NCBI GenBank assembly: GCA_964544265.1
Contig: CAZJBD010000004.1
Span: 1-48,602 of the forward strand
From: an uncultured Eubacteriales bacterium
GTDB taxonomy: Bacteria > Acidobacteriota > Aminicenantia > Aminicenantales > Saccharicenantaceae
Reading direction: 5' to 3'
Length of the DNA stretch: 48,602 nucleotides
A model generated the notes under the pieces. That model worked only from the letters and a program-made list of their open reading frames with translations. It had not been told where the DNA came from and did not search any database. Positions within the stretch are counted from its first letter, which is position 1, and each line of letters begins with the position of its first letter. A program made the translations under genes and the position numbers. Of the stretch, positions 9,251 through 36,140 are shown one piece after another.

Positions 9251-9300
9251 TCAAGCCTCCCGGACCGACTTTTGCGTGATTGAATTATATTGAAAGATTA

Positions 9301-9737
9301 AGTAGGGGTCAAACCTACAGTCTTAACAGCAAGCATCTTTTCGTATGAGAGGGAATTCAGGCTCGGGACGGGCCCTCCGTCGGAAGCGGCCTGGAGCCGC
9401 CCTTGGCCCCCGGCCCCCAGGGGAACCAGTCTCGTCGCACCTCTGCCGGCGACGCGGACGATTTCAGGGCCCCCCTTCGATTATTCGGAGGGGGTAGGGG
9501 GTGGCAAGAAATAAGAACGAAGTCTTGAACGTGTCGCCGTGATTCGGGTCCCCTCTCCGCTACGGGGGCTTACGGGCGGCATCCAGTGCCGCTCAGCAAG
9601 AATGAGGACCCGTGCCCGCTCCGACCTTCGACTGCCTCCTCCGGGCATCGCCCCTGCGCCATCGCCTGTATCGTACGAAAAGATGCTTCCTTGCTAACAA
9701 AAGAAACCATGTCAAAAGAGTAGGTTTGACCCCTACT
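9301..9737. repeat. REP family A arms (9301-9329 and 9710-9737) enclosing a long fold-back element
   Basis: Left arm AGTAGGGGTCAAACCTAC; right arm TGTCAAAAGAGTAGGTTTGACCCCTACT. Confidence 0.85.
9331..9688. repeat. Long imperfect palindromic (MITE-like or structured) element, copy 1
   Basis: Terminal IR 17/18 (9331-9348 and 9671-9688) plus seven further nested stems identified by eye. Confidence 0.75.
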
Positions 9738-11688
9738 CTAACTTGATGCCGGCATAAACGCACAAGCCGGGCGTCCCGTACCCGTAGATCATTTCGTAAT
9801 GCTGGTTAAGGAGGTTATCGAGCCGGAAGAAGAGCTTGATCCGCGGTGCGAGAGCGTAAGAAATGTTCGCATCGAGGAGTGTATAGGGGTGGAGAGTGAT
9901 TGGGGCTGACGGCCAAGCGTTGAAATCCAGGTCGCTCCGGCTGCCGATGCGGCTGAGCTTGAGGCCGAGGTCGAATTTCGGAAGCGGAGTCCAATCCAGG
10001 GTCGCGGAGAACTTATTCCTGGGACGGCGCAGGAGGGCAAGTCCGGTATCCTTGTCCGTCGCTTTGAGCCGGGTGTAAGAGGCCGTGATCGCGAGTTCCG
10101 CGCAGGGCGCGGCTTCGCCGGTTAATTCGACCCCTCTTGTTTCGGCCCGGCCGACATTGATGTATCCTCGAACGTTATCAAAACTGATCAGGTTACGGAA
10201 GGAGTTTTGGAAATAGGTCGCTCCCAGCTTGAAGCGGCCCCCGGTCAGGTCCTGTTCGAGGCCGGCGTCCCAGCCTGTGGATTCTTCAGGCTTTAGGTTC
10301 TCGTTTCCGATGGGGCCCCAGGCCGTCGGCGGGGCATAAAGCTGGTAAAGCGAAGGGGACTTGAATCCCGTCCCCAGGGTCGCCTTGAGTTTGGTTCCCG
10401 TGCGGGCGATGAACCAGGCCGGGGCGATCCGGTAGGTGAAGGCCGTCCCTGAGCGGCTGTGGCTGTCGATCCGGATTCCGGTCGTAGCGAAGAACCGTCC
10501 GCCGAGCTTGACCTGATCCTGGACGTAGATGCCGAGGTCGCCGGCCTTCTTGGCGGGGAATTCGCTCACGAAAGGCCCCCAGAGACTCTCGGATGTGTAT
10601 TGGGAGCTTCCCTGTTCCGCTTCGTATTCGGCTCCAAAAGTCAAGGTGTTGGAGGGATGGAGGAATATATTATTTTGCCAGTCGAACTTTAGGAGGCCGC
10701 TTGTAAACGAACCCTTTTCCGAGTCGAACGGATGCGCTTCGTCAACGGGATTGTCGTTGAGCCGCTTGGACCGGAAGACGGCCGCACCCAGCCTGGATTC
10801 CCAAAGGCCGTTCCCGGAAAGCCTGCGGAGCTGGGCCCTGGCGAAAAGGCAATTATAGCGCTGGAAGCTGTTGGGATCATCGCCGAAAGAACCTCCGAAA
10901 TTATCGATCTCCGACCTGGTCAGCAGGCCGCGGACGGTCAGGTCCAGGTCGAGGTTTTTCCGGAGCTTCAGACCGACCCGCCCGCTCAGGGAGAGATTCC
11001 GGTATCCGTCTTTTTCCCCGTTCCCGGCCAAAGCCTTGTCCGCCGCGGAGATCCCTCCGCTTCTCAGATAGGAGACTCCCAAGGAGTAGACGACCCTCCG
11101 GGCGGAGCCCGAGATCCCCAGCCTGTTGTCCGACGTCGATAGCGATCCGGCCGATCCGGAGAAATCGAGTTTGGGCCGGCCCTCTCCCGTCCGGGTTATG
11201 ATGTTGACGACCCCGCCGAGCGCGTCGGAGCCAAAAAGCGTGCTCTGGGGGCCGCGCAGAATCTCGATCCGCTCGACCTGGTCAAGGGTGATGTGGGCCA
11301 AGTCGCAGGAGCGGGATGGATTCATCGGATCATTGATCTCGACGCCGTCGAGGAGGACCAGGGTGTGCTCGGAGTTGCCGCCTCGGAGCATAATGGAGGC
11401 TGCGGCCCCAATTCCCCCGCTCCGGATTGCGGCCGTTCCTACGACGTCTTCCAGGATTTCGAGCACGGAGGACCGATTGGCCCGGGCCAGGTCAGTCCGG
11501 GAGATCACGGTGATCGAAGAGGCGACTTCCTTGCTTGGCGTTTCGATTCGCGTGGCCGTGACGACGACGTCATGCCGGAGCTTCTGAAGCTGAGGCTTAT
11601 CCGCCGTTTCTTCGGATAGGGCGGAAGGGGCGAGCGTTGCGGTTAATGATAGGGCTGCCGCGAGGGCCCAGATGGTTTGTTTAGCCAT
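9733..11688 (-). CDS. btuB: TonB-dependent receptor, BtuB-like cobalamin transporter
   Basis: Signal peptide from ATG at 11688 (AAGGAG RBS), DVVVTATR TonB-box region, IEILRGPQSTLFGSDALGGVVNIIT plug motif, upstream cobalamin riboswitch. Confidence 0.85.
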   Translation of the reverse strand: MAKQTIWALAAALSLTATLAPSALSEETADKPQLQKLRHDVVVTATRIETPSKEVASSITVISRTDLARANRSSVLEILEDVVGTAAIRSGGIGAAASIMLRGGNSEHTLVLLDGVEINDPMNPSRSCDLAHITLDQVERIEILRGPQSTLFGSDALGGVVNIITRTGEGRPKLDFSGSAGSLSTSDNRLGISGSARRVVYSLGVSYLRSGGISAADKALAGNGEKDGYRNLSLSGRVGLKLRKNLDLDLTVRGLLTRSEIDNFGGSFGDDPNSFQRYNCLFARAQLRRLSGNGLWESRLGAAVFRSKRLNDNPVDEAHPFDSEKGSFTSGLLKFDWQNNIFLHPSNTLTFGAEYEAEQGSSQYTSESLWGPFVSEFPAKKAGDLGIYVQDQVKLGGRFFATTGIRIDSHSRSGTAFTYRIAPAWFIARTGTKLKATLGTGFKSPSLYQLYAPPTAWGPIGNENLKPEESTGWDAGLEQDLTGGRFKLGATYFQNSFRNLISFDNVRGYINVGRAETRGVELTGEAAPCAELAITASYTRLKATDKDTGLALLRRPRNKFSATLDWTPLPKFDLGLKLSRIGSRSDLDFNAWPSAPITLHPYTLLDANISYALAPRIKLFFRLDNLLNQHYEMIYGYGTPGLCVYAGIKLE

Positions 11689-11747
11689 GGCCGACTCCTT
11701 TCCATTCGGCCCCCGCTTCAAACCGAGCCCGTCCGTCCGGGAAGAAG

Positions 11748-11782
11748 AAAAAAAATGACCCTGTCTTCCTCCCGAAGACGGG
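11748..11782 (-). terminator. Riboswitch-controlled intrinsic terminator
   Basis: Minus strand reads CCCGTCTTC-GGGAG-GAAGACAGGG followed closely by a T8 run. Confidence 0.7.
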
Positions 11783-11800
11783 TTTTTCCAGGGTTTAAAA

Positions 11801-11955
11801 AAGGTCTCCTGACTTCCGGATCGATCTCATCCCGGGCCTTCCAGGCCGGTCTTTCGGCCTGTGGCCTCTTCCGGGACTCGTCCCCGGTTACAGTAGCGGG
11901 GGCTGTGTCCGTGTCCCACGGACTTCCCTTACTTTAAACCCGAATACCTTCTGTC
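11801..11955 (-). ncRNA. Cobalamin riboswitch
   Basis: Minus strand contains AAGGGAAGTCCGTG, GCCCCCGCTACTGTAA, GCCAC...GGAAGGC and AGTCAGGAGACCT (B12 box), upstream of a BtuB-like gene. Confidence 0.93.
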
Positions 11956-11989
11956 GAAATCGTCTCTAGACGATCCAAACGACCCCTCA

Positions 11990-12018
11990 TTTATAGAGCA
12001 ACGCCCCTTCGATGTCAA
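11990..12018 (-). promoter_or_regulatory. Sigma70-type promoter for riboswitch/btuB
   Basis: Minus strand TTGACA, 17-bp spacer, TATAAA. Confidence 0.7.
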
Positions 12019-12033
12019 GCTGGGAAATGACGT

Positions 12034-12102
12034 GGAAACATCTGCCTCCTCCGGGCATCGCCCCTGCGCCATTGCCTATATCACACGAAAATAGATGCTT
12101 CC
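12034..12102. repeat. Short derivative of the 9331-9688 element
   Basis: 12042-12102 closely repeats 9632-9690; bounded by GGAAACATCT and AGATGCTTCC (9/10 IR). Confidence 0.8.
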
Positions 12103-12734
12103 AAATGCCGCTTGGAGATGATGTGGTTGGTTTTTAGACGAGGGCCGATCTTCTGTTGGGCCTGTCGAGAGTTTGCCTGATTTTTAGACAGGCCGCCCCG
12201 TCCTCTTTTAAGACGGGGCAGCCTCTTGAAGGGAATGGATTGAAAGATAAGTGTATCTTGAAACTCCTATAAAAAGGAGGACCAAAAAGGAGGTGCTTAT
12301 TCTTGGCTGTCCGCGTCTGTTCTCTCATTGCCGTCATCCAAACTAATATACGTGTATAACGGGGAAAAAGTTGCATAGAGGAAATCAACGGAAAACGCTT
12401 TTGGTTTCTTGGGTGGGGGGAGCGGCTTCCAGCGGCCGCTTTTAATGTCAATGATAATTATACCATCTTTTTTCTTTCGAAGCAACATTTTTTTAAATAT
12501 TTCTTTAAAATTGCCATTTCCAGAGGCATTCGACGTTTTTTCGGCCTGAAACGGGCTGATTTTGCGAATTCCCGAGTTAAGACGCGCGGAGACATGCAAC
12601 CGGGAGTCAGGCCCCCGGGTTTTCAGGCGCGGCGTGATAGAAGAAACGGCATGAATTGCCCTCGAGTTGCGCCCTTAGATCGTCTTTTTTGCGATATTTA
12701 CCGGGAAAATGTATAGTTATCCCGAGAGTGAAGC

Positions 12735-14141
12735 ATGAAAAAGGACGTTTTTAGAAAATTTGGCCATGAATTCGTGGATTGGCTGGCAGAATACCTGGAA
12801 TCGGTCGAAAAATATCCGGTTAACTCCCCTGTCAAGCCGGGAGAGATCAAGGCCAAGCTTCCCGCGAATCCTCCCTCTTCGGGGGAAGCGATGGATAAAA
12901 TTTTCAGGGATTTCCAGGACATCATCCTGCCCGGGATCACTCATTGGCAGCACCCGGGTTGGTTCGCCTATTTCCCGGCCAATAACAGTCCTGCCTCTGT
13001 CCTGGCCGAATTGCTGACGGCCGGGATGGGCGTGCAGGGCATGGTCTGGCAGACTTCGCCGGCGGCCACTGAGCTCGAAGAGGTCGTCCTGGGCTGGCTC
13101 CGCATAATGCTCGTCCTTCCCGAAGGCTGGTCGGGGGTCATCCAGGACACGGCTTCGACCGCGACCCTCTGCGCCCTCCTGACGGCCAGGGAAAAGGCCA
13201 CGGGCTATGAAGCGAATGTCCGGGGTCTCAAAGTTCCTCTGACTGTTTATGCTTCCACAGAAACCCATTCGAGCATAGAAAAAGGGGTCAAGATCGTCGG
13301 CTACGGGAAAGAGAATTTGAGAACCGTGCCCGTTGATGAAAAATATGCCATGATCCCCGAGGCCCTTGAAAAAGCCGTCCGCGATGACATCAGGGCCGGC
13401 CTCAGGCCGGCCTGCGCGGTGGCCACCATCGGGACGACCTCATCCGGGGCGATCGATCCGCTCGGCTCGATCGGCAAGATTTGCCGGGAGCACGGCCTTT
13501 GGCTCCATGTCGATGCGGCCTATGCCGGCACGGCGGCCATTCTCCCCGAAAAACGCTGGATCCTGGACGGAATCGAGGGCGCGGACTCTTTCGTTTTCAA
13601 TCCGCACAAATGGATGCTGACCAACTTTGACTGCTCGGCATATTTCGTGAAGGATGCGGCCGCCTTGATCAGGACCTTCGAAATCCATCCAGAGTACCTG
13701 AAGACGGGGGCGGACGCCGTGGTGAGGAACTACCGCGATTGGGGGATTCAACTCGGCCGGCGGTTCCGGGCCCTCAAACTTTGGTTCGTCATCCGCGACT
13801 ACGGCGTGGAAGGCATCCGGGCCATGGTCCGGGAGCACATCCGGCTGGCCAGGCTCTTTGAAGGCTGGCTCCGCGGCCATCCGAAGTTTGAGCTTCTCGC
13901 TCCCGTCGACTTGAGCCTTGTTTGTTTCCGGATAAACGACGGGCGGCCGGAGGAGGCGCTTAACGCCCTGAACAAGGAACTCTTAGCGCGCGTCAACGCC
14001 TCGGGCAAGATTTTTCTGTCCCACACATCTCTCAAGGGGAAATTCACCGTCCGGCTCGTTGTTGGGGGAAGAACGACGGCTGAGCGCCACGTCCGCAATG
14101 CTTGGGAGATCATCAAGTCGGAAGCGGAGCGCTTGCTGTAG
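12735..14141 (+). CDS. Group II PLP-dependent decarboxylase (aromatic L-amino acid decarboxylase-like)
   Basis: PGITHWQHP, SPAATELE, HVDAAY, NPHKW and GRRFRALKLW motifs. Confidence 0.92.
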   Translation: MKKDVFRKFGHEFVDWLAEYLESVEKYPVNSPVKPGEIKAKLPANPPSSGEAMDKIFRDFQDIILPGITHWQHPGWFAYFPANNSPASVLAELLTAGMGVQGMVWQTSPAATELEEVVLGWLRIMLVLPEGWSGVIQDTASTATLCALLTAREKATGYEANVRGLKVPLTVYASTETHSSIEKGVKIVGYGKENLRTVPVDEKYAMIPEALEKAVRDDIRAGLRPACAVATIGTTSSGAIDPLGSIGKICREHGLWLHVDAAYAGTAAILPEKRWILDGIEGADSFVFNPHKWMLTNFDCSAYFVKDAAALIRTFEIHPEYLKTGADAVVRNYRDWGIQLGRRFRALKLWFVIRDYGVEGIRAMVREHIRLARLFEGWLRGHPKFELLAPVDLSLVCFRINDGRPEEALNALNKELLARVNASGKIFLSHTSLKGKFTVRLVVGGRTTAERHVRNAWEIIKSEAERLL

Positions 14142-14175
14142 GGAATCATATTTAGAGATCCCCTCAGGGCTGGGG

Positions 14176-15270
14176 TCACTTGGCTTTATAAATCCCCGCT
14201 TTCTTTGCCCCAAGATAAATGGACCGGCGAAGGATTCTATCGGCCGGAACGAGCTCCCTGACCATCACAGGCGTGATCATCCGGATATGGCGGGCCGCAT
14301 TAAGGGCGTCGCCGATGTAGCCCAGGTCCTCGTCCGTATACACCCAGTTGCGCCGGTCGAACCGGGCGAGGTTAAAGGGTGGGGAGTAAGAGCGCAGCGA
14401 TTTCTGGTCCCGGGTGTTGAAGAAGATGTCGAAATAGGACATGACCAGCTCGCGGATCGTCCGGTAGACGGGTTCCCGGAACCGGAGCACCGAAAAATTC
14501 GACTTGGCGACCGCACCCCAGTGCCCGCGCCGTTTGAATACCGCGATGATGTGATCGTCGTCGTTCGCAGCCACTAAGTCCACGAGGAAAGGCCTATGGC
14601 CGATGGCCCGCAGGGCGGCAGCTGCGAAAAGGGCGCCCTCGAAACAATTGGCTTTATTTTCCCTGGCGATCCAGAGAGGGGAACGGGTCCCGGGGAGGCA
14701 GTCGTACTCGAGACGGTCGAGGTAATGCTGAATCTTGATGGGGGAGTCGAGCTTGTCAAAGAGGCGTCCGGCCGATCTGCCTTCGGCTGGTTTGCCTCCT
14801 CTCCTCTTTACGGTCTTTCTGGTCATGATCGCGCTTTTTCGGTCTCTTGTCGTATAGGGCTTGATGTCGAGGACGGGCGTCCCCTCGACCATGTCGACTC
14901 CCGAAATCCGGAGGGTATTTCCCCTCCTGCTCGCGAGCTTGACGATCGTCAAGCCCAGGGCGTTCGGACGGTGGGGTGATCGCGTTGAAAAAACCCCTCT
15001 CGGCCGTGTTTCCCCCGGCGGTTTCACCAGAAGCTTGGCCTTCGTCGACTTGTGGAAGGCGAAGGTGACGATGAGGTGGGAGAAAGCGGTTACATCCCGG
15101 AGGCCTTCGACGCATTGGGGGAAAATCTCCAGCTCGCCGCGGACCTTCGCAAAAGCTCCCGGGAGCCGGTTCATACCCCGCGGAATATCCTCAGGTTCCT
15201 TGAAAGGGGAATGGACGACACCGATCGGCTTGAAAACAAAATTTCGTCCTTTGCCGCCCTTTTTATTCAT
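14176..15270 (-). CDS. trmO: TrmO/TsaA tRNA methyltransferase domain fused to a putative transglutaminase-like domain
   Basis: N-half has PIGVVHSPF, GVFSTRSPHRPN and GTPVLDIKPY; C-half has ANCFEGALFAAA, DHIIA and HWGAVAKSNF. Confidence 0.75.
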   Translation of the reverse strand: MNKKGGKGRNFVFKPIGVVHSPFKEPEDIPRGMNRLPGAFAKVRGELEIFPQCVEGLRDVTAFSHLIVTFAFHKSTKAKLLVKPPGETRPRGVFSTRSPHRPNALGLTIVKLASRRGNTLRISGVDMVEGTPVLDIKPYTTRDRKSAIMTRKTVKRRGGKPAEGRSAGRLFDKLDSPIKIQHYLDRLEYDCLPGTRSPLWIARENKANCFEGALFAAAALRAIGHRPFLVDLVAANDDDHIIAVFKRRGHWGAVAKSNFSVLRFREPVYRTIRELVMSYFDIFFNTRDQKSLRSYSPPFNLARFDRRNWVYTDEDLGYIGDALNAARHIRMITPVMVRELVPADRILRRSIYLGAKKAGIYKAK

Positions 15271-15324
15271 TGTCGCCGGCAGAGGCGCGACGGGCGAATC
15301 CGAGAGGAATTGTTCCCCGGATGC

Positions 15325-16287
15325 CTAATAGACATATGTCAGCCACTTCTCGTATTTAGGGACCTTCCCGGAGACGATATCCTTGAAAGAGGCCTTGAGC
15401 TCGAGGAAGACTCTCCCGGGCTTGCCGTCGCCGATGGCGCGCTCGGTCTTCTTGTCTTTCCCGTTCGATCCGTCCGCCACCCGGACGAGGGACGTGATCT
15501 CCACGGCGGTCCCGGTAAAGAAGGCCTCATCGGCGCCGAAAAGCTCCTCTTTCGTGATGGGTCCGATCTCGGTTCGGTAGCCGCGGTCCGCCGCGAACTC
15601 CAGAACACTTGTCCTGGTGATGCCTTCGAGGATGGATTCTTGGATGCCGTTGGTCCTGAGGGTTCTGCCCTTGACAACGAAGATGTTCTCTCCCGGCCCT
15701 TCCGCGACTCGTCCCTCGAGATTCATAAAGATCGCCTCGTCGTACCCCTGGGCCCGAGCTTCCAGGCCGGAGATCGTGGATTGGACATAGAACCCGCCCA
15801 GTTTGGCCCTCATATCCAGCTGGCTGTGGTGAACCCTCCGTTCCGGAACGATGAGGGCCGATACCCCCTCGGCTGCCTTTTCTCCCAGGTATGCGCCCCA
15901 CTCCCATACGCCGATGAGCATCTCGACCGGGCAGGCCTTGGGGACCAGCCCGAGATTGCCGTATGAGTAGAACAGAAGGGGGCGGATGTAAGCGCTTTTA
16001 AGGCCGTTCTCCCTCATGACCAGCCGGATGAGTTCGATGATCTCCCCCTTGGAGTGAGGGGATTTCATCTTGATGACAGAGGCCGAATGCAGGAAGCGGT
16101 CGATGTGATCCGGCAGGCGGAAAACCGCCGGCCCCTTGGCCGTATCGTATGCACGGATGCCTTCGAACGTGCAGGTGCCGTAATGAAGGGCATGGGTCAT
16201 GGGATGAAGCGTGGCCTCGGACCAATCATAAAAGGTCCCCATGTGCCAGTACTTCTTGGCGCCGGGGAAGTGAGTGTTAGGAAACAT
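15325..16287 (-). CDS. ilvE: Branched-chain amino acid aminotransferase
   Basis: HALHYG..FEGIRAY, YIRP, EGPGENIF, ILEGITR and FTGTAVE motifs. Confidence 0.9.
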   Translation of the reverse strand: MFPNTHFPGAKKYWHMGTFYDWSEATLHPMTHALHYGTCTFEGIRAYDTAKGPAVFRLPDHIDRFLHSASVIKMKSPHSKGEIIELIRLVMRENGLKSAYIRPLLFYSYGNLGLVPKACPVEMLIGVWEWGAYLGEKAAEGVSALIVPERRVHHSQLDMRAKLGGFYVQSTISGLEARAQGYDEAIFMNLEGRVAEGPGENIFVVKGRTLRTNGIQESILEGITRTSVLEFAADRGYRTEIGPITKEELFGADEAFFTGTAVEITSLVRVADGSNGKDKKTERAIGDGKPGRVFLELKASFKDIVSGKVPKYEKWLTYVY

Positions 16288-16529
16288 GGCAGACTCCTTG
16301 GACTGAATGAATACAGGGATTTAGAACGGAAGTGACACCTTGTGCCAAAGGCCCAGCGTGAAAGAAGACACAACCTCCGTTGTTGAGGATTTATCCTAGC
16401 ACACAAACCAAGCCGGGGTCAATCAACATTTTTTGGGGAGCTTGAGGATGCTATTCAGGACCGTTCATAAAAGGGCCGTGGGATTGAGAGCGGCTAATAT
16501 TAATAAGAGCGCATTTGATAGCTGCCGGC

Positions 16530-17468
16530 TTATTTGCCGAAAAACGTTTTGCCTTTAAATCTGGCCCGGCTGATTTTTTTTGCCGAAACCAGGGAGACCA
16601 ATGCTTTACGGACCTCGTCATGATGGGCCCCCAAGGACGCGGCAATATCTTCCGCCGTCACGGGACGCCTCCGTACAATGGACAGAATACCGGCCTCCAG
16701 GCTATCGATGGCCGGCTTTTGGGGCTTCTTCGGGAAGTCCGCCACGACCTCACAGCCCTCGCCGATGGCTTGGCGAATCCTTTCCATGTCGGCGGTGGCT
16801 AGCGGCCGGCAATGCTTTACGGCCGGCGGCCGGACAACCGTATTCAGCTGGACCTTATCCGGCCGGATGGCGGAGATGGCTTGCTTGAGTTTCCTGACAT
16901 GAGAAGGGGAGTCGTTTATCCCCTTGACGAGCATGATCTCGAGCCAAATTGAGCCCTTGTAGCGCCGGCGAAACTCGATCAGCCCCTTGAGCGTCCGGCT
17001 CAGAGACAGGGAGCGATGAGGACGGTTGATCCTTTTAAACATGCCGGGGGTTGCTGCGTCCAAGGAAGGGACCACGACATCCGCTGCCCGCAGCGCCTCG
17101 CGGACGTCCGGCCGCGCGAGAAGCGTCGCATTGGTCAAGACGGCCACGGGGATAGCCGTCATCTTCTTAATGCCGCAGATGATCGTGCCGATCGCACGGT
17201 TGAGCGTCGGCTCCCCCGAACCTGAGAATGTGATGTGATCGATGTGCACTCCCGAGGCGATCGCCCTCCGGACCTGGGCGAGGATTTGCTTCGGATCGAA
17301 AAACGACCTTCTCCGGACCGCTTTTCGGGAGGAAGAGCCGAGTTGACAGTAGATGCAGTCCAGGGTGCAGGTCTTAAGAGGGAGGATGTCCACCCCGAGG
17401 GAGAAACCAAGCCTCCTTGACGGCACAGGACCATAGACGCAAGTCCGCTTCGGTGCCTTGGGCGCCAT
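16530..17468 (-). CDS. Radical SAM protein of unknown function
   Basis: YGPVPSRRLG, CTLDCIYC and SGSGEPTL motifs; probable C-terminal HTH. Confidence 0.88.
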   Translation of the reverse strand: MAPKAPKRTCVYGPVPSRRLGFSLGVDILPLKTCTLDCIYCQLGSSSRKAVRRRSFFDPKQILAQVRRAIASGVHIDHITFSGSGEPTLNRAIGTIICGIKKMTAIPVAVLTNATLLARPDVREALRAADVVVPSLDAATPGMFKRINRPHRSLSLSRTLKGLIEFRRRYKGSIWLEIMLVKGINDSPSHVRKLKQAISAIRPDKVQLNTVVRPPAVKHCRPLATADMERIRQAIGEGCEVVADFPKKPQKPAIDSLEAGILSIVRRRPVTAEDIAASLGAHHDEVRKALVSLVSAKKISRARFKGKTFFGK

Positions 17469-17473
17469 GACCG

Positions 17474-17677
17474 TCAGGACTTATCCTTGTAAAGCTGGGT
17501 GAAGGCCCGCAAGGAACGGTCGTAAGTCTTTTCTACGGCGTCGGGGAACAGGCAAGCCGGGAGTTCTTTGTGGCTCCAGTGGTACTGGAGGCATTCGCAG
17601 CAAAGACCTTTGCGATCGCAGGGCTCCCAGGAACAATTGCACCGTTTCGCGTTTTGCCGGACGTTGCACTCTCTCAT
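17474..17677 (-). CDS. Small Cys-rich protein (DUF6485-like), 67 aa
   Basis: MRECNVRQNAKRCNCSWEPCDRKGLCCECLQYH...ELPACLFP...YDRS; start moved to 17677 because the longer ORF runs through a repeat. Confidence 0.75.
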   Translation of the reverse strand: MRECNVRQNAKRCNCSWEPCDRKGLCCECLQYHWSHKELPACLFPDAVEKTYDRSLRAFTQLYKDKS

Positions 17678-17699
17678 AAACGTATTATCCGATTTAAAC

Positions 17700-17875
17700 A
17701 AGTCGTGGTCAAACCCGCAAGATGGCCGTTGGGATTCTTTCTTACCAAGCGATGACATCGACTTCTGGAGATCCGTGGAATTCCAGGGACACGATACCAA
17801 TTCCAGAGAATTCGTTCATGTCCCGGAATTCCAGCTCGCGTCCTATCGGCCATCTTGAGGGTTTGACCCCGACTT
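17700..17875. repeat. Divergent family A doublet with nested degenerate family B copy
   Basis: Arms AGTCGTGGTCAAACCCGCAAGATGGCCG and CGGCCATCTTGAGGGTTTGACCCCGACT; inner GGGACACGATACCAATTCC at 17786-17804. Confidence 0.75.
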
Positions 17876-17925
17876 TCCCCTAAGATATAATATTTTTTGC
17901 GAATTCGATCATTAAGAGGGAGAAC

Positions 17926-18336
17926 GTGAGCGCATATACGATAAAAGAAGCCAAAGCCGGGCTCGCAGCGAAACTCCCGGCGATAGATACCTTTCCTAAT
18001 CAATTCTCCGGCTACGAGATCAAAATCGAGGTCCCCGAGTTCACCTCAGTCTGTCCGAAGACCGGCCTGCCGGATTTCGGAATCCTGACCATTTATTACC
18101 AGCCAAAAGCACGCGTCTTGGAGCTCAAATCCCTGAAAAAATATTTTTTGGCTTACCGAAACCTGGGCATCTTCTATGAGAACGTCGTCAATCGCGTCCT
18201 TGAAGATATCGTCAAAGCCTGCCGCCCCATTCGGGCTTCCGTAACGGGCGTATTTAATCCCAGGGGCGGACTCAGATCCATAATCGAAGCCCATTACCCG
18301 CGTCCCGGGAAGAGGTCCCGGATGGCGAGGGGATAG
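17926..18336 (+). CDS. queF: NADPH-dependent preQ0 reductase (single-domain)
   Basis: EFTSVCPKTGLPDFG, ELKSLK and PRGG motifs. Confidence 0.93.
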   Translation: MSAYTIKEAKAGLAAKLPAIDTFPNQFSGYEIKIEVPEFTSVCPKTGLPDFGILTIYYQPKARVLELKSLKKYFLAYRNLGIFYENVVNRVLEDIVKACRPIRASVTGVFNPRGGLRSIIEAHYPRPGKRSRMARG

Positions 18337-18395
18337 GTCTTCGGTCCCTGCCCGCCGCGCGTTCCAACAAAAGCCTGCCAAGTGTGAGTTGAGCC

Positions 18396-19346
18396 ATGTC
18401 GAGGATCGAGAATAAGGCCGCGTTCGAGACAACCGATCTCTGGATGCTCCTGACGACCATGATCTGGGCCGTCAACCTGTCCTTGATCAAGTTTTCCCTG
18501 CGTGAGTTCACTCCGCACGGATTTAACGGGGTTCGGCTGGCCCTGTCCTCAGTGATTTTTCTCGTCGTCCTCGCTTTCCGGCCCGGCGGCTTTTCCCTCG
18601 GCAGGGGGGATTATCTGAAGGTCGCGGTGCTGGGACTCCTGGGAACGACAATCTACCAGCTTCTCTTCATCCAAGGCATCACCCGGACCCAGGCGACAAC
18701 GGCCTCCATGATCATGCCCATGACCCCGGTGTTCATCGCGGTCCTCAGCTCCGTTTTCAAGCTCGAGCGCATCCATTGGGCAGCTTGGCTGGGCATCGCC
18801 GTTTCTTTCCTGGGCGTCTATCTTCTCATTAGCGGTCAGAACGGTCATATCGGCCTCAGCTGGCAGTCCGTCAAAGGCGACATCTTCCTCCTTTTGGCCA
18901 ACCTGGCATGGGCTCTCTATACCATCTTCTCCAAGCCGCTCTTGGAAAGGGTCGCGCCGGTGAAGCTCGCCGGCATATCTCTCGTGATCGGCACGGCATT
19001 CTACCTGCCCTTCGCCGCCGCGGACGTGGTCCGGATTCCCTGGTCCTCCATCAGCCGGGGCGCCTGGGCATCGGTCCTCTATTCCGCCGTTCTGGCCATG
19101 GTTGTCAGTTTCATCGTCTACTGCAGTTCCGTCCGGACGGTCGGGAATACAAAGACGGGAATCTACAGCAACCTCAATCCCGTCTTCGCCGTGATCTTCG
19201 CCTGGTTTTTCCTCTCCGAAAGGATCTCCGCCGTCGAGGCCGGCGGAGGGCTCGTCATTTTTCTCGGCGTTTACTTGACGAGGTCAGGATATAAGTATTT
19301 TCTCAAAAAGCCGGAGGGGAAAAACTCTATGGACGGTGCCGGATGA
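18396..19346 (+). CDS. EamA/DMT family transporter
   Basis: About 10 hydrophobic segments in two repeats; NLNPVFAV...LSERI motif. Confidence 0.9.
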   Translation: MSRIENKAAFETTDLWMLLTTMIWAVNLSLIKFSLREFTPHGFNGVRLALSSVIFLVVLAFRPGGFSLGRGDYLKVAVLGLLGTTIYQLLFIQGITRTQATTASMIMPMTPVFIAVLSSVFKLERIHWAAWLGIAVSFLGVYLLISGQNGHIGLSWQSVKGDIFLLLANLAWALYTIFSKPLLERVAPVKLAGISLVIGTAFYLPFAAADVVRIPWSSISRGAWASVLYSAVLAMVVSFIVYCSSVRTVGNTKTGIYSNLNPVFAVIFAWFFLSERISAVEAGGGLVIFLGVYLTRSGYKYFLKKPEGKNSMDGAG

Positions 19347-19403
19347 TTTTGCTGCGTTGAAATTTTTTCTTAAAGAATATATAAAGGAGGGGGGAACGTT
19401 AAC

Positions 19404-20276
19404 GTGATCGTCGAAGTCTTCAAGTCGCTTAGGCCGCAGCAGTGGATCAAGAACCTCTTCATCTTTGCCCCCCTCATCTTTTCCAGAAGCCATCTCAATC
19501 CGGCGCTGGTCTTGGAGACCGCGCTGGGCTTCGCGGCGTTCTGCTTGATCGCGAGCGCCCAATACGTTTTTAATGACATTCACGATTTGGCTGAGGACAG
19601 GCTCCATCCCGTCAAGTCGAAGAGGCCGCTGGCCTCGGGAAGGCTTAAGATGGGCCCCGCTGTCCTGTCCTGCATTCTTCTTGCGGTCTGCGGACTGGCC
19701 GTGGCCGCGATCCTCGACCGCGAGTTCTTCATCATCTCCGCAGCTTACCTCGTCCTGCAGCTCCTTTACTCGCTCTGGCTCAAACATATCGTCATCCTGG
19801 ATGTCTTCGTGCTGGCGGCCGGATTCGTCATCCGGGTCGTGGCTGGGGGTCTGCTCATCGAAGTTAAGATCTCCTCCTGGCTTCTCGTCTGCACGATGCT
19901 CCTCTCCCTTTTCCTGGCTTTAGGCAAGAGACGCCACGAAATCGTCCTCCTGGAAAGCAATGCCCAGAACCACCGCCCCGTCCTCAAGGAATACAGCACC
20001 GAGCTCCTTGACCAGATGATCTCGGTCGTGACGGCCTCCACGCTCATCGCATATTGTTTGTATACGATCTCCGAGGAGACGGTGGCCAAATTCGGCACGC
20101 GGAATCTTATCTTTACGGTCCCCTTCGTTCTCTACGGCATCTTCCGCTATCTTTATATCATCCATCTGAAGGCTGAGGGCGGCTCCCCCGAGTCCCTGAT
20201 CATCAAGGACACGCCCCTTCTCCTCGACCTCTTTCTCTGGATTGCCGCCGTAATTCTGATTATTGGCCCGAGGTGA
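19404..20276 (+). CDS. UbiA-family polyprenyl-phosphate phosphoribosyltransferase-like protein
   Basis: RPQQWIKN, NDIHDLAEDRLHPVKSKRPLASG and LGKRRHE motifs. Confidence 0.87.
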   Translation: MIVEVFKSLRPQQWIKNLFIFAPLIFSRSHLNPALVLETALGFAAFCLIASAQYVFNDIHDLAEDRLHPVKSKRPLASGRLKMGPAVLSCILLAVCGLAVAAILDREFFIISAAYLVLQLLYSLWLKHIVILDVFVLAAGFVIRVVAGGLLIEVKISSWLLVCTMLLSLFLALGKRRHEIVLLESNAQNHRPVLKEYSTELLDQMISVVTASTLIAYCLYTISEETVAKFGTRNLIFTVPFVLYGIFRYLYIIHLKAEGGSPESLIIKDTPLLLDLFLWIAAVILIIGPR

Positions 20277-20280
20277 TCTC

Positions 20281-21357
20281 ATGAGCCGGGTCCGAGTCGC
20301 GGTCTTGAAGACTTCGCCGGAGACGATCCTCGACGATATCCGCGTCGTCATGTCCTTAGCCGATTATCAGCGCTTTCTTAATAAAGACCAGGATATCCTG
20401 ATCAAACTCAATCTCTCCTGGACCAAATACTTCCCCTCCTGCTCGAGCCAGCCCTGGCAGGTCGAGGGCGCCGTCCGGACGCTCCTTGAGGATGGTTACT
20501 CTCGGGAGAAACTTATTCCCGTAGAAAACAAGACGGTCGTTACCAATCCGATAAAGGGAGCAAGGAACAACAAATGGCTGTCTGTCCTCGATAAATACGG
20601 ACTGGAATTCATTCCGCTTCCAGAGGCCGAGTGGATGTTTTACTCCTTCCGAAGCCCGCTTCTCAAGCTCAATGAGATTTTCCCGGAAGGCATCCTCATC
20701 CCGAAAATCTACGTCGGAAAGAGCATCCTCCACCTCCCCACGGTCAAGACCCACGGCCATTCGACGACGACGGGCGCGGTGAAGAACGCCTTCGGCGGGC
20801 TGCTCAAAGAGGTCCGCCACTACGCCCATAAATACATCCACGAAGTCCTGGTCGACCTCCTTTACATGCAGAGGGAACTCCATCCGGGGCTTTTCGTCGT
20901 CATGGACGGGACCGTCTGCGGGAATGGCGCCGGGCCCCGAACCATGCTGCCGGAGATCAAGAACGTCATCCTGGCGAGCGGCGATTCTCTGGCCATCGAC
21001 GCTGTAGCGGCCAAAATCATGGGATTCGAGCCCATGGACATCCCCTACATCCGGATGGCCCACGAACGCGGGCTGGGTGTGGGCGACCTTCGCGAGGTCG
21101 AGATCGCCGGCGAGGACGTCTCTGAGATGAACTTTGGATTCAAGGCCCGGCGGAGCTTTGTCATCTGGGGCGACCAGATGATCCGGAAGGGATTTCTCCG
21201 GCCGTTCGAGCGGCTTCTTCTCCACTCGCCGCTGGTCTTCTGGGCGCCCTTCGCGTCCAACGTTTATCACGACCTGATGTGGTATCCGACGATCGGCAGA
21301 AAGCGCATCCGGCACTTCATGAAGACGGAGTGGGGAGCCCTCTGGAAAAAATATTGA
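20281..21357 (+). CDS. DUF362 domain protein
   Basis: IKLNLSW, LPTVKTH, TGAVKNAFG, MDGTVCGNGAGP and AIDAVAAKIMG motifs; ATG at 20281. Confidence 0.8.
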   Translation: MSRVRVAVLKTSPETILDDIRVVMSLADYQRFLNKDQDILIKLNLSWTKYFPSCSSQPWQVEGAVRTLLEDGYSREKLIPVENKTVVTNPIKGARNNKWLSVLDKYGLEFIPLPEAEWMFYSFRSPLLKLNEIFPEGILIPKIYVGKSILHLPTVKTHGHSTTTGAVKNAFGGLLKEVRHYAHKYIHEVLVDLLYMQRELHPGLFVVMDGTVCGNGAGPRTMLPEIKNVILASGDSLAIDAVAAKIMGFEPMDIPYIRMAHERGLGVGDLREVEIAGEDVSEMNFGFKARRSFVIWGDQMIRKGFLRPFERLLLHSPLVFWAPFASNVYHDLMWYPTIGRKRIRHFMKTEWGALWKKY

Positions 21358-21376
21358 CGGCGATCGCCAGAGTTGA

Positions 21377-22006
21377 TTATCGGATCCCCAGGATTTTGTG
21401 GAGCTGGACGGAAACCCGGATATTTTCCAGCCCTTCCTTAAGGCTCTGCCCGAGGATCTCCATGGCCTTGGTCGCGCTCCGGCGGCGGTTGGACTCGGGC
21501 TGGAGGAAGACGGGTGTCCCGGACGGGAACCTCTTTCGGGTTTCGCGGACGATTTCGAAGCTCAGTTCCCGGCTCACCACAAGCTTCACTTCTTTGGCCG
21601 TTTTTAGGAACCGGGGCTCGACGGCATATTCCGGAGGCTTGGGAGAAACCGTATACCAGTCCACGGGGAGCAGGCGGTCGACCGTCCCGTTGGTCTCGGC
21701 CTGGACCTTGAATCCTCCTTTTTTGAAGTCGCGGACAAGCCCGGAGATGTCCTGAAGGAGGGGCTCGCCGCCCGTCAAGCAGACCCAGACCGCGGGGAAA
21801 TCGTGTTGCAGTCGGAGGACTTCCGCTACGACCTCATCCCGCGTCCTTTCTTTTCCGCCCGTCCAAGCGTATTTCGTGTCGCAAAACGGGCAACGAAGGT
21901 TGCATCCCGAAAACCGCACGAAAATCGTCGGTTCGCCCTGGCGAAGACCCTCGCCCTGAACGGAGGCGAAAACCTCAGCGATCTTCAGAGTAGGTCGCGG
22001 CAGCAT
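21377..22006 (-). CDS. queE: 7-carboxy-7-deazaguanine synthase
   Basis: SVQGEG, FVRFSGCNLRCPFCDT, TGGEP, SPK and QLHK motifs. Confidence 0.93.
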   Translation of the reverse strand: MLPRPTLKIAEVFASVQGEGLRQGEPTIFVRFSGCNLRCPFCDTKYAWTGGKERTRDEVVAEVLRLQHDFPAVWVCLTGGEPLLQDISGLVRDFKKGGFKVQAETNGTVDRLLPVDWYTVSPKPPEYAVEPRFLKTAKEVKLVVSRELSFEIVRETRKRFPSGTPVFLQPESNRRRSATKAMEILGQSLKEGLENIRVSVQLHKILGIR

Positions 22007-22322
22007 CCTCGGATTCCCAAACGGTTACGGCCTTGACCGGATAGAGCTTCTTGAGCTCCCGGTAGAAATGGCGGGACAGATTCTCGGCGGACGGATTAAA
22101 AGGGTAGACGTCGTTGAGGAGCGTATGGTCAGGAAGGATCCCGGCCAGCCGCTTTTTGATGTCCATGAAATCGATGCCGATCCCCGCCTTATCGAGCTCG
22201 GCAACTTCGATTTCGACTTGAACCTGGAACGTGTGTCCGTGGACCTTCTCGCACTTACCTTTGTATTCTCGGAGAAAGTGGGCGGCTTGGAACTTGTCCT
22301 TGGCCTTCAATATCCAGCTCAT
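21975..22322 (-). CDS. queD: 6-carboxytetrahydropterin synthase
   Basis: Starts MSWILK; AAHFL, CEKVHGH, NPSAENL and VWES motifs. Confidence 0.92.
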   Translation of the reverse strand: MSWILKAKDKFQAAHFLREYKGKCEKVHGHTFQVQVEIEVAELDKAGIGIDFMDIKKRLAGILPDHTLLNDVYPFNPSAENLSRHFYRELKKLYPVKAVTVWESEDAAATYSEDR

Positions 22323-23014
22323 AGTTTTCCTTCCTTTCGTAACCGGGCAATGAGCGGGTCCTTCAAGCCGGCCTCTCGCCAAGCCTTTTTCCGCAGGAGG
22401 CAGGAGGAGCAGGCGCCGCAGGGCACTTCGCCGCCGGCGTAACAGGACACGGAGTACGAGTAATCGGCGCCGAGGGCGATTCCTTTCCGGATGATGGTGG
22501 ATTTCTTGAGCTTGACGAAGGGGGCGAGGACGCGCATCCGTGGGGTTCCGAAAGCGGCCTTCGTTCCGGCGTTGATGGCCTCTTCCATGGCCCGGACGAA
22601 CTCGCACCGGGTATCCGGATAATTCGGCGAGTCGATCATGTTGAATCCGCAGACGAGGTCCGTAACGCCCTTCGCTTCGGCCCAAGCCGCCGCCAGGGAC
22701 AGGAGGATGCCGTTCCGGAAAGGGACATAGGTCGGCGGAATCCCGGCCTTGAGAGTCTTGAGGTCCCGGTATTGGGGAACGGAGATCGCGGCGTCCGTCA
22801 AGGCGGAGCCTCCGACCTGGGTGAGGTCGATCTTGAGTACGATATGGGGGATGGCGAGTTTACGGGCCAGGCGCTTGGCCATCCGGACCTCGACCGCGTG
22901 CCTTTGACCATAGTCGATGGTGAGGGCGAAGACTTTGGCGGACCTCGCAAGCGCCCAATAGAGCGCCGTCGTGGAATCTATCCCCCCGGAGAATAAAACG
23001 ACGCAGGATTTCAT
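22319..23014 (-). CDS. queC: 7-cyano-7-deazaguanine synthase
   Basis: SGGIDS, YGQRH, TYVPFRN, YPD and SCY...CGACSSC motifs. Confidence 0.95.
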   Translation of the reverse strand: MKSCVVLFSGGIDSTTALYWALARSAKVFALTIDYGQRHAVEVRMAKRLARKLAIPHIVLKIDLTQVGGSALTDAAISVPQYRDLKTLKAGIPPTYVPFRNGILLSLAAAWAEAKGVTDLVCGFNMIDSPNYPDTRCEFVRAMEEAINAGTKAAFGTPRMRVLAPFVKLKKSTIIRKGIALGADYSYSVSCYAGGEVPCGACSSCLLRKKAWREAGLKDPLIARLRKEGKL

Positions 23015-23051
23015 GCCGATACCCACGCCGATGATAAAGCAGAATCAAGCC

Positions 23052-23121
23052 GGGGTCAAACCTACTCTTTTGACAAAAAATCGGCTGCCCTTGTGTTTGT
23101 CAAAAGAGTAGGTTTGACCCC
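23052..23121. repeat. REP family A doublet
   Basis: Perfect 26-bp IR, 23052-23077 and 23096-23121. Confidence 0.92.
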
Positions 23122-23176
23122 TCCTTCTTGACACCCCTATACCCCGATGATAATGTTTTTATTCCGGACGAGGCAG

Positions 23177-23974
23177 ATGTCTGAGGTATTTGCGCTCTTA
23201 GATGAGGTGAAAAAAGGAGGAGAGTTCGTCCTCCGGGACGACCAGTATGGATTCAACGATATCCTGGACGCGGTCAAGACCGCCCGCGGCCGGGGCACCC
23301 GCTTCGACCTCCTGGACACCGGGCGGTTCAACCTCCTCGAGCTGGAATTGCTCTGCGGGGCCGGCGCTCATTTCTACTCTTCCGATGATGCCCGCGCGGA
23401 CGTCTCCGAGTTGCTGGCCATCCGGAAGGCCTGTGCCAAGGGCGGCTCCTCTGCGGCATATCTGGCGCGCGGTCCTTTCGAACGCGACGATCAGCCGGAC
23501 CGATCGTCTTATTCCATTCTCTTGGCCTTGGCTGAGGAGGGATTCATTCTTCATGCCTCGAATCGAGAATATGCCCGGGACGTCCTCCGGTTGTCGGAAC
23601 TCGCCGAGAAAGCCAGGAAAGGGGGCGGCTTTCTGGTCTATTATTATCACGGGGGTGCGGACCCCGGGCTCATCGAGTTGGCCTCCCGAGGCGCGAAGAT
23701 TCACCTTTCGGACAAGCTGCTCCAGGAAGGCGACATCGAGCTCCTGACCGCCGTCCTCAAAGCCTCTCGCGGGCGAAAACCGAAGCTCGTCCTTTACATC
23801 GAGAAAGGCATGCCCTACTTATTCCTCAAAAAGATTTTTAGCGCAGGGGGGACCCTGCTTTTTAAGACGCCGCCGATCGATCGTGGCTCCCCCATGGGGG
23901 AACTCGAAAGGAAGGCTCTCAGGAGATCGCTCCGCCCCGGGACCTATTATCTTCAAGCGACTTTCCTCCTGTAA
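23177..23974 (+). CDS. Hypothetical protein with four internal beta-alpha-beta-alpha-like repeats
   Basis: Long ORF; ATG at 23177 preferred (GAGG RBS; upstream ATG overlaps a likely -10). Confidence 0.75.
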   Translation: MSEVFALLDEVKKGGEFVLRDDQYGFNDILDAVKTARGRGTRFDLLDTGRFNLLELELLCGAGAHFYSSDDARADVSELLAIRKACAKGGSSAAYLARGPFERDDQPDRSSYSILLALAEEGFILHASNREYARDVLRLSELAEKARKGGGFLVYYYHGGADPGLIELASRGAKIHLSDKLLQEGDIELLTAVLKASRGRKPKLVLYIEKGMPYLFLKKIFSAGGTLLFKTPPIDRGSPMGELERKALRRSLRPGTYYLQATFLL

Positions 23975-24092
23975 CCGCATAGCGCGCCCACGAACAAAGC
24001 AGAGCCTGAGCTTGATCAAAACGGCGCCTCCGTCAGTTTTCCGAAGAGAGTTCGTGGATAAACCGGGGTGAATTGGATATAATGAATCTTTT

Positions 24093-31559: not shown

Positions 31560-31560
31560 A

Positions 31561-32227: not shown

Positions 32228-32255
32228 TTGACATTTGAAAAAAACCATATATATT
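32228..32255 (+). promoter_or_regulatory. Sigma70-type promoter for the ATP-grasp operon
   Basis: TTGACA, 16-bp spacer, TATATT, with A-rich upstream sequence. Confidence 0.65.
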
Positions 32256-32310
32256 TTTAATTGAATGAAAGGTTATTAGTGAAATTGAAAACAAGGAAAG
32301 AGGAATAAAG

Positions 32311-32361
32311 ATGATCACACTCATGGGCACTTTCGTGAACCTCAGTCGTCTGGAAGAGTAA
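32311..32361 (+). CDS. Candidate 16-aa peptide MITLMGTFVNLSRLEE
   Basis: Purine-rich RBS (AAGGAAAGAGGA) before ATG; stop 5 nt before the next start. Confidence 0.45.
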   Translation: MITLMGTFVNLSRLEE

Positions 32362-32366
32362 CGGCG

Positions 32367-34507: not shown

Positions 34508-34952
34508 GCCGGCCGTCATGGACCTCATCAAGGCTACGGGAATGTTCACTCCCGGCGAGATCGAGGTGGCGGAGGAACTCATCGACGCCTACCTCCTGAA
34601 GCCCGGCCAAAAGGACTACCACGTCGTCATCGTGGAAGCCAAGGACGGGGGAGTAGGGGGGTACATGACTTGGGGGCCGACGCCGCTCACCGAGGGCGCC
34701 TATGATCTCTACTGGATGGCCGTTTCGCCGAAGGAGCAGGGAAGGGGCCTGGGCAAAGAGCTCGTCCGCTGGCTTGAACAGACCGTGGCTCGTCTCAAGG
34801 GACGGCTCATTCTCATCGAAACGGCCGGCCAGCCCAAGTATCACCGCACCAGGGAATTTTATTTGGGGCTGGATTACAAAGAGGTCGCGCGGGTTCCCGA
34901 TTTCTACAGGCCCGGGGACGACCGCATTATCTACACGAAAAAAATAAAGTAG
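34479..34952 (+). CDS. GNAT family N-acetyltransferase
   Basis: LYWMAVSPKEQGRGLGKEL motif A; FY..LDY. Confidence 0.9.
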   Translation: MVRPMAPADKPAVMDLIKATGMFTPGEIEVAEELIDAYLLKPGQKDYHVVIVEAKDGGVGGYMTWGPTPLTEGAYDLYWMAVSPKEQGRGLGKELVRWLEQTVARLKGRLILIETAGQPKYHRTREFYLGLDYKEVARVPDFYRPGDDRIIYTKKIK

Positions 34953-35034
34953 GGGTCAAACCTACTCTTTTGACAAAAACCCCTGAAATAAACATTAACT
35001 TTTGTCATTCTGTCAAAAGAGTAGGTTTGACCCC
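34948..35034. repeat. REP family A doublet downstream of RAYT
   Basis: Perfect 24-bp IR, 34952-34975 and 35011-35034. Confidence 0.92.
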
Positions 35035-35044
35035 AATCTTCAAT

Positions 35045-35986
35045 CTAAAACAGATTTCTTTTCACACCTTCGATTGTCTGGCTAAGATCCCCATCCAATA
35101 AAAGCTTTTTTTCCATCCGATGACAGATCTTAGCGATTCCTGATTGGCTAAAGCCAAAAAAAGATCCGATTTCACTCAACTTATAATCTGTTTTCATATG
35201 GGCAATATAAATAGCTGCGTTTCTCGATAATTTGTCTGCAGTTCCGAGGGCTTCCACAACTTCAGATTGGATTCTTTCCAGGGGCGGCTTCTTTCTATAT
35301 TGCCTAAGCAACGGGAACTCTCGGTTGGGAGCTTTCCCCTGGAGATATTTCTCCTTGATGCGCTCGAGGAATCCCTTGCTTCCCAAGATGGCCGGAGTTC
35401 CTCCATTTTCATTCTTGAACGGGCTGGCAATATTTGAAATGAGAGCGGAAGAGATGAATCCAGCGTATCGGAGGCGCGCATCATCAGTATCATCTCCGAA
35501 TAAGCCCAGGACAAAGCTTGTATCAAGCCAACGAGGAGGCTCCCTTTGGCCGAGATACTCGCGAAGGCTCGACCAAGGATAGTCCTCTAGACGCTTAACA
35601 ATGCCGGCACGTAAAGGGTTTAAGTGGATATAACGGGAGAGTTCCTGGGCGTAAATTTCCGCTTCGATTAGGGCTGCCCTAAAGCGGCCTTGGAAGAGGT
35701 GTCCAACCCTTTTGTACCGTTTGTTGATATAGATCGTGAAAGATGTATTTATGAAATGCATAATCTTCGAGAGGTTTGCTTGACGGGTTTCGAGCATGAG
35801 GTGGTAATGGTTCTGCATCAGGCAGTACGAGTGCACAAGGGCATCAAATTTTTCGTGAGCCTCATTAAGGCAGTCTAGGAATCTAGCCCTGTCCCATGGC
35901 GAAAAGAACACTGGCTGTTTCTGATTCCCCCTGGAAGTGATATGATAGAATGCGTTCGAATATTGGATTCTTAGCTGCCTGGCCAT
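35045..35986 (-). mobile_element. REP-associated Y1 HUH tyrosine transposase (RAYT/TnpA-REP-like) with C-terminal HTH
   Basis: MARQLR..YHITSRGN, YCLMQNHYHL (HUH), GHLFQGRF, RYIHLNP, YPWSS; C-terminal LSEIGSFFGFSQSGI helix-turn-helix; visibly AT-richer than its neighbours. Confidence 0.9.
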
Positions 35987-36043
35987 AATTGTTCTTGATG
36001 GATAGTTCATGAACATAGACGAAGTGAAGGGTACGGGATTCTC

Positions 36044-36140
36044 AAGTAGGGGTCAAACCTACTCTTTTGACAATATGATAAACGCAAATGTTTATTTTGT
36101 GATCCGGCGTTTGTCAAAAGAGTAGGTTTGACCCCTACTT
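36044..36140. repeat. REP family A doublet upstream of RAYT
   Basis: Perfect 30-bp IR, 36044-36073 and 36111-36140. Confidence 0.93.

Follow-up and report, generated by a model that had tools for sequence, protein, structure and literature searches.

What does a short palindromic repeat contribute to the genes beside which it lies? The question is raised by the 48,602-nucleotide stretch of contig CAZJBD010000004.1 analyzed here (the window), which carries repetitive extragenic palindromic (REP) sequences, mostly in inverted pairs (REPINs), and a gene for a REP-associated tyrosine transposase (RAYT). A preliminary description of the window claimed that each REP arm reads TTGACC outward and that at five loci a -10-like hexamer in the flanking DNA lies exactly 17 bp away (N17) and points at a gene. 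According to our analysis, which compares sequences across related genomes, these REP hexamers have probably been co-opted as -35 boxes of sigma-70-type promoters and retained by selection. All five pairs were read off the sequence at the coordinates claimed, as listed here with the genes that they face.

9284..9312, minus strand: promoter of the AMIN-domain gene, with GGTCAA at 9307-9312 and ATTATA at 9284-9289, i.e., TTGACC-N17-TATAAT (11 of 12 consensus matches)
8024-9250, minus strand: AMIN-domain gene, downstream of this hybrid promoter
17684..17712, minus strand: pair before the Cys-rich gene, with TTGACC at 17707-17712 and GATAAT at 17684-17689 (N17)
17474-17677, minus strand: Cys-rich open reading frame (ORF) of 67 aa, whose ATG lies 6 nt past the -10, without a ribosome-binding site
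17863..17891, plus strand: queF promoter, with TTGACC at 17863-17868 and TATAAT at 17886-17891 (N17)
17926-18336, plus strand: queF, downstream of this hybrid promoter
23031..23059, minus strand: queC promoter, with TTGACC at 23054-23059 and TATCAT at 23031-23036 (N17)
22319-23014, minus strand: queC, downstream of this hybrid promoter
36028-36056, minus strand: proposed promoter of the RAYT gene, weak, with TTGACC at 36051-36056 and TACCCT at 36028-36033 (N17)

The repeated unit is AAGTAGGGGTCAAACCTACTCTTTTGACA, in which a GTAG tag is followed by short alternative hairpins. We deem it a GTAG-type REP, since it is an extragenic, short, multi-copy, tagged palindrome whose arms mostly stand in inverted pairs, and copies of it flank a RAYT gene encoding a Y1 domain. 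Every REP pair presents TTGACC outward on both sides; the hexamer sits in the loop of the arm's small hairpin and in the stem of the full REPIN hairpin (-28 to -29 kcal/mol, z of about -9). The 14-nt core has 71 matches genome-wide at up to two mismatches, 46 of them exact, and the window has 50 occurrences of TTGACC, compared with 22.7 ± 5.0 in shuffled sequences. The core GTAGGTTTGACCCC is present in 9 of the 41 genomes searched, the present one included. The 7 nt directly after TTGACC, CCTACTT, are conserved repeat sequence, and the 10 nt from the repeat end to the -10 are different at every locus, so the -10 lies outside the repeat. A -10 belonging to a longer repeat consensus was ruled out, since the preceding 10 nt are locus-specific and end-facing arms are without a -10. 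The inward TTGACA of each arm was also considered as a promoter element, and no -10 was found 17 bp from it in the REPINs read by eye, for which no systematic count was made.

The window is contig C4 of a 2.63-Mb assembly (G000; 244 contigs, 56.8% G+C, 84.7% complete), which together with the sister species G003 and G004 makes up a REP-bearing clade. Five congeners (G001, G002, G005, G006, and G007) are collinear with the window and REP-free, the 17-nt core being absent from them at up to one mismatch. We counted 62 arms in G000, comprising 58 with the inner-arm motif, the two variant arms at 17.7 kb, and one other that differs from the core at no more than one position; one single-mismatch core arm without the inner-arm motif is also counted and already included among the 62. 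They fall into 29 start-facing, 31 end-facing, and 2 unclassed arms. A -10 was scored at an identity of at least 5/6 to TATAAT, and spacings of 8 to 45 were examined. Since contig C4 is the source of the hypothesis, the arms outside it serve as an independent test.

At N17, such a match is found for 9 of the 29 start-facing and for none of the 31 end-facing arms (Fisher p = 0.0007), i.e., for about 15% of all arms (9/62) and 31% of the start-facing ones. At all other spacings examined, start-facing arms have a mean of 0.35 matches and a maximum of 2 (Poisson p = 1.6e-10). Outside contig C4, the match is present in 5 of 21 start-facing and 0 of 26 end-facing arms (Fisher p = 0.013), with a mean of 0.30 matches at other spacings (Poisson p = 1.5e-5). 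A strict set of 57 arms gives six TAnnnT hexamers and six matches of at least 5/6 to TATAAT at N17, the other spacings giving 0 to 4. The genome-wide histogram, for which the preliminary description had predicted a peak at 17, has that single peak, and in gene-facing arms only. Each in-register locus features an outward -35-like hexamer at the element end and a -10 in flanking DNA within the 16 to 18 bp that characterize hybrid promoters. The five out-of-window loci, with a start codon about 10 to 35 nt past the -10 at each, are the following.

C13:27012: TATAAG
C59:10561: TATGAT
C107:4531: TAAAAT
C142:3855: TATTAT
C1:59098: TATAAG

As a positive control, we inspected the TTGACN hexamers that lie outside REPs and upstream of predicted starts (n = 496); good -10s number 12 at N16, 72 at N17, 43 at N18, and 11 at N19, against 0 to 9 at other spacings. 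These counts indicate that the organism uses ordinary sigma-70 architecture.

The REP-free congeners show what these sites look like without the repeat. The orthology of the short intergenic motifs was assessed by eye on aligned flanks.

queC: TTGAAA, TTGAAT, or TTGTAA-N17-TATCAT in REP-free congeners; TTGACC-N17-TATCAT in G000
queF: TTGTCT-N17-TATCAT in five of five REP-free congeners; TTGACC-N17-TATAAT in G000 and G004 (L017)
AMIN gene: TTGCGT-N17-TATACT in G006, 2 nt past the upstream stop codon; TTGACC-N17-TATAAT in G000
C107:4582: TGGAAT-N17-TACAAT in REP-free congeners; TTGACC-N17-TAAAAT in G000, G003, and G004
C1:59154: TTGATT about 15 to 17 bp before GATAAA or TAAAGG in REP-free congeners; TTGACC-N17-TATAAG in G000, G003, and G004
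C59:10503: extended -10 TGATATGAT conserved in all six genomes compared; TTGACC at N17 added in G000 only
C13: two-gene operon with a 21-nt gap and no promoter between the genes in four congeners; pair split by a REPIN in G000 and G003
C142: no clear promoter in REP-free congeners; ambiguous

At queC, queF, the AMIN gene, and C107:4582, the -10 and the 5' untranslated region (UTR) are ancestral, and the REP hexamer stands exactly on the position of the old -35; at C1:59154, the ancestral -35 lies within about 2 bp of it. With the old -35 lost, no sequence but the REP hexamer is left for the -35 role at these loci, and the empty-site comparison backs the proposal that the repeat replaces -35 boxes or is retained only in register. 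The AMIN gene of G004, with no REP here, has TTGCAT-N17-TATAAT and a 5' UTR homologous to that of G000. At C13, TTGACC-N17-TATAAG or -TATAAA is new DNA before the second gene, and the upstream ORF continues into the REP and terminates within it, which gives its product a new C-terminus.

The hexamer is also conserved where the palindrome has decayed. In G003, the queC REPIN has shrunk to GTAGGGGTTTGACCCCTAC and TTGACC-N17-TATGAT is retained. The C107 arm has decayed in G003 and G004, where the CCTACTT flank has become ATGTTCG and the stem is lost, and TTGACC-N17 is kept. At C1, G003 has the full REPIN and G000 half of it; in G004 it is nearly gone, with only GTTTGACCCCAACTT remaining. Collapsed REPINs, with a single short palindrome left, occur in G003 at queC (L079), at the AMIN locus (L088), and at the C142 locus (C372), the remnants being GTAGGGGTTTGACCCCTAC, GTAGGTTTGACCCCTAC, or AAGTCGGGGCGACTT; they resemble deletions between both arms and may be footprints of REPIN loss.

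The co-option reading would proceed as follows. A GTAG-type REP/REPIN family, mobilized or maintained by the RAYT at 35045-36016, would land in the very short noncoding gaps of a compact genome. Any copy that disrupted a promoter would be lost, so that a REPIN would survive only where harmless, and copies with TTGACC in register with an existing -10, or at which a -10 later arises, would be kept. Purifying selection would then preserve the hexamer and its spacing in spite of decay in the palindrome. What is proposed is co-option filtered by selection, with no designed regulon; that transcription actually starts from the hybrid promoters, and the order of these events, we infer.

Arms that are out of register, or that face gene ends, have contexts of their own. 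The preliminary description named two exceptions, at uvrA and purD, and both hold on the sequence.

3050..3086, plus strand: solo REP arm facing uvrA (313-3021, minus strand), with TTGACC at 3061-3066 on the minus strand
44325..44391: tight REPIN (-28 kcal/mol) between a gene ending at 44334 and purD (44401-45681)

At uvrA, TTGACC is followed after 11 bp by the extended -10 TGTTATAAT (TGT-TATAAT; 3044-3052, minus strand), and the G004 orthologue (L001) reads TGCTATAAT with identical spacing. The C121 arm likewise faces an extended -10 promoter. Both arms being out of register fits the fact that extended -10 promoters need no -35. At C4:23119, C59:10608, C107:4464, and C142:3581, a native TTGACA or TTGATT stands 2 to 6 nt past the repeat end with its own -10 at N17. 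Before purD, whose ribosome-binding site and ATG start lie 13 to 19 nt after the arm, there is no outward promoter, and purD is probably co-transcribed with the upstream gene. Nearly all end-facing arms lie within 18 nt of a stop codon, and 14 of the 31 give the TAG stop (the TAG of GTAGG) to the adjoining ORF; in the window, the stops at 9733, 34952, 36135, and 44334 are donated by a REP. Stop-codon donation is already described for GTAG REPs in the available text of PMC3733652.

Several points weigh against co-option by selection. Selection alone fails to account for the strict N17: the REP cases number nine at N17 and none at N16 or N18, against 72 at N17 among 127 native N16-to-N18 cases, and the chance of 9/9 at N17 is about 0.006 by our own arithmetic. 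Native TTGACC is a rare -35, with a -10 at N17 in only 3 of 87 cases versus 46 of 206 for TTGACA. A plain selection filter is expected to act in other genera too, and in those with the same core 0 of 50 start-like arms have a match of at least 5/6 at N17. A displaced native -35 is expected beyond the REPIN, and none is seen at queC, the AMIN gene, or C59; these loci have therefore lost ancestral DNA in addition. With coding identities of about 70 to 78% between G000 and the REP-free congeners, intergenic DNA is too diverged for exact insertion points, and G003 and G004 mostly have the REP loci of G000, so that the sites would fit insertion plus deletion as well as conversion; because of these common loci, G003 and G004 are not independent replicates. 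Among the single loci, the C59 promoter, with its conserved extended -10, may need no -35, and C142 is ambiguous, with TATAAT at N23 in G004 and TTGACC lost in G003. Gene context and start codons come from our own crude codon-usage gene caller, and with 244 contigs at 84.7% completeness the arms are under-sampled, since repeats often drop out at contig ends.

The first alternative is that the RAYT inserts REPINs into TTGAC-like -35 sequences, or converts such sequences, and that the register derives from this mechanism and not from selection. We consider this unlikely, although the strict N17 and the lost ancestral DNA leave room for targeting or conversion. All nine cases are exactly at N17, tighter than native promoters; the REP hexamer stands exactly on the old -35 in four of the four loci with a clear ancestral promoter; retained native -35s start only 2 to 6 nt from the repeat end; and ancestral DNA is missing, not displaced. 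Some IS200/IS605 relatives insert adjoining TTGAT-like targets, which also counts for targeting. However, cut-and-paste beside a native TTGAC cannot hold the register, since the CCTACTT after TTGACC is part of the repeat; 31 of the 60 classified arms face gene ends, 0 to 18 nt from a stop codon, with no -35 in sight; and C13 had no ancestral promoter that could have been targeted. The other genera, with 83 arms, yield three TAnnnT hexamers and no match of at least 5/6 at N17. The absence of a peak at the same core marks the N17 peak as clade-specific and disfavors element-intrinsic targeting, so the claim that targeting -35 boxes is a property of the element is not supported. The arms in these genera are flanked by CCTTCT instead of CCTACTT, and native promoters lie 10 to 30 nt further out. 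At loci L027, L031, L052, and L060 (G015, G009, and G018), an extended -10 resembling CTGTGCTATAAAT recurs downstream of the REP arms. Were the RAYT to place or convert REPs precisely at -35 boxes, this would explain the strict N17.

The second alternative, a dispersed regulon in which RAYT binding or extrusion of the REPINs as cruciforms switches about 10 hybrid promoters together, queC and queF included, concerns the transposase gene and its surroundings.

35045..36016, minus strand: RAYT gene, encoding a 323-aa IS200-like Y1 (HUH) transposase (PF01797 Y1_Tnp, residues 20-131, E = 5.3e-14)
34943..35042: REPIN downstream of the RAYT gene
36040..36143: REPIN upstream of the RAYT gene

Among named relatives, the protein closest to the RAYT, at 86% identity, comes from a Candidatus Aminicenantes metagenome-assembled genome. 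The REPIN-flanked layout is usual for a RAYT and is identical in G004 (L013 and L014). In favor of a regulon, TTGACC lies in both the arm loop and the REPIN stem (-28 to -29 kcal/mol), so structure formation would hide the -35, and the RAYT has a DnaA_C-like helix-turn-helix, weak at E = 2.9e-4 and below the Pfam cutoff. According to the available part of PMC8049555, Bertels and Rainey (2011) raised the speculation that REPINs act as promoters, with the RAYT as their transcription factor. Against it, the nine downstream genes, with functions taken from Pfam hits and, for five out-of-window proteins, judged by eye from translations, share no function beyond queC and queF: the others encode the AMIN protein, the Cys-rich peptide, a membrane signaling-like protein, two TIM-barrel isomerase-like proteins, an ACT-like protein, and an ABC ATPase. 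Several hybrid promoters outlive palindrome decay in the sister species, a persistence from which it follows that they work without REPIN structure. The RAYT's own hybrid promoter, as previously proposed, is not supported: TACCCT has 3/6 identity to TATAAT, and G004 (L013) reads GACCTC there. Such a regulon is very improbable. The broader idea that REPINs and RAYT form a host-serving promoter system, with about 10 dispersed -35s gated by the RAYT or by REPIN extrusion, appears doubtful at best; if true, it would answer what benefit sustains REPIN populations for millions of years.

That the N17 hexamers are chance AT-rich matches, with the real promoters elsewhere, is hardly credible: TACCCT (RAYT) and TATTAT (C142) are doubtful cases, but the Poisson p values (1.6e-10 for all arms, 1.5e-5 outside the window), the 0 of 31 end-facing arms with a match, and -10 hexamers that are conserved in REP-free congeners at equal distance from the start codon speak against it.

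The repeats that carry the hybrid promoters of the window, and one native promoter beside them, are as follows.

9296..9741: REPIN whose arms, 9296-9332 and 9707-9741, have other multi-copy repeats between them
17700..17875: variant element ending in REP arms (17700-17734 and 17841-17875), located where the Cys-rich gene and queF diverge
23043..23129: REPIN that fills the gap between two divergent promoters, one for queC and one for the gene at 23177-23974 (hairpin of -29 kcal/mol, z of -9.3)
23128..23156, plus strand: native promoter TTGACA-N17-TAATGT with TG extension, starting 2 nt past the REP end and conserved in REP-free congeners

A consensus scan of positions 9000 to 24000 gave 10 hits, among which the four REP-derived promoters rank first; shuffled sequences gave 4.0 ± 2.3. 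The left arm of the REPIN at 9296..9741 gives TTGACC to the AMIN gene, and the GTAG of its right arm gives the TAG stop of a TonB-dependent receptor gene (9733-11721, minus strand), which the REPIN adjoins. The arms of the element at 17700..17875 differ from the core at two to three positions, and between them lies a different multi-copy repeat. The GATAAT of the Cys-rich gene does not satisfy the TAnnnT pattern used in the preliminary description. In G000 this ORF looks as if it were read from a leaderless mRNA, judging by its position relative to the -10; in REP-free G005 and G006, the orthologous ORF does have a ribosome-binding site, GGAGGA. Several other genes of the window have a 5' UTR shorter than 15 nt.

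The interiors of the REP-ended elements at 9332-9700 and 17716-17858 are other multi-copy repeats present on dozens of contigs. They are found in G000, G003, G004, and partly in G001, and a related inverted repeat lies at 3099-3196; this second repeat family, as yet unclassified, nests within REPINs. At 16393-16422 (minus strand), upstream of the gene at 15325-16287, TTGACCCCGGCTTG has 14 nt in common with the queC arm plus flank, no other part of the REP being present, and a TG-extended TAGGAT follows it at N18; it may be the remnant of an old arm that still acts as a -35. No riboswitch (preQ1 or other) was detected before queC or queF; at the gathering score, Rfam gave only a cobalamin riboswitch elsewhere in the window (11782-11983, minus strand; 95.5 bits, E = 1.2e-22). 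It lies upstream of the TonB-dependent receptor gene, and for this reason the gene likely encodes a BtuB-type B12 receptor.

Insertion sequence (IS) ends with an outward -35 are known to make hybrid promoters, as in the cases of IS1, IS2, IS256, and the ISAba1 type. The loci described here are similar in that the end of a mobile repeat contributes a -35-like hexamer, which stands at sigma-70 spacing from a -10 in the flanking host DNA. They differ in that the donor is the roughly 30-nt REP arm of a RAYT-associated REPIN and not an IS end, and in that the arrangement is old, common to several species, and predicted from sequence, with an ancestral -35 being replaced in register instead of a silent gene being activated.

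Correia elements of Neisseria and other miniature inverted-repeat transposable elements provide sigma-70-like promoters, according to the accessible portion of PMC10969869; like REPINs, they are small, nonautonomous palindromic repeats, often just upstream of genes. In Correia elements, as far as that portion goes, the promoters are on the element, whereas here the repeat holds the -35 alone and host DNA the -10, 10 nt beyond the repeat end, so that no -35 and -10 stand together inside the element. The transposase family also differs, being here a Y1 HUH RAYT. A further likeness is to the GTAG REPs of Di Nocera et al. (2013; PMC3733652) and the REPIN/RAYT systems of Park et al. (2021; PMC8049555), for which the passages available describe a GTAG tag ahead of a hairpin, arms in inverted pairs, REPs on both sides of a RAYT, and ends that adjoin ORFs and give TAG stops. 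In those passages a promoter role of REPs is a speculation, treated as untested; unlike there, the spacing peak and the empty-site comparisons here are direct sequence evidence. Among the titles and abstracts of the open-access literature searched, we found no report of REP arms as in-register -35 donors.

The hybrid promoters match the common sigma-70 consensus. The donation of -35 boxes would be a concrete host function of REPINs, one that could explain their long-term retention. The compact genome appears to reuse one repeat as punctuation, its TAG serving as a stop for the gene on one side, its TTGACC as a -35 for the gene on the other, with a hairpin between them.

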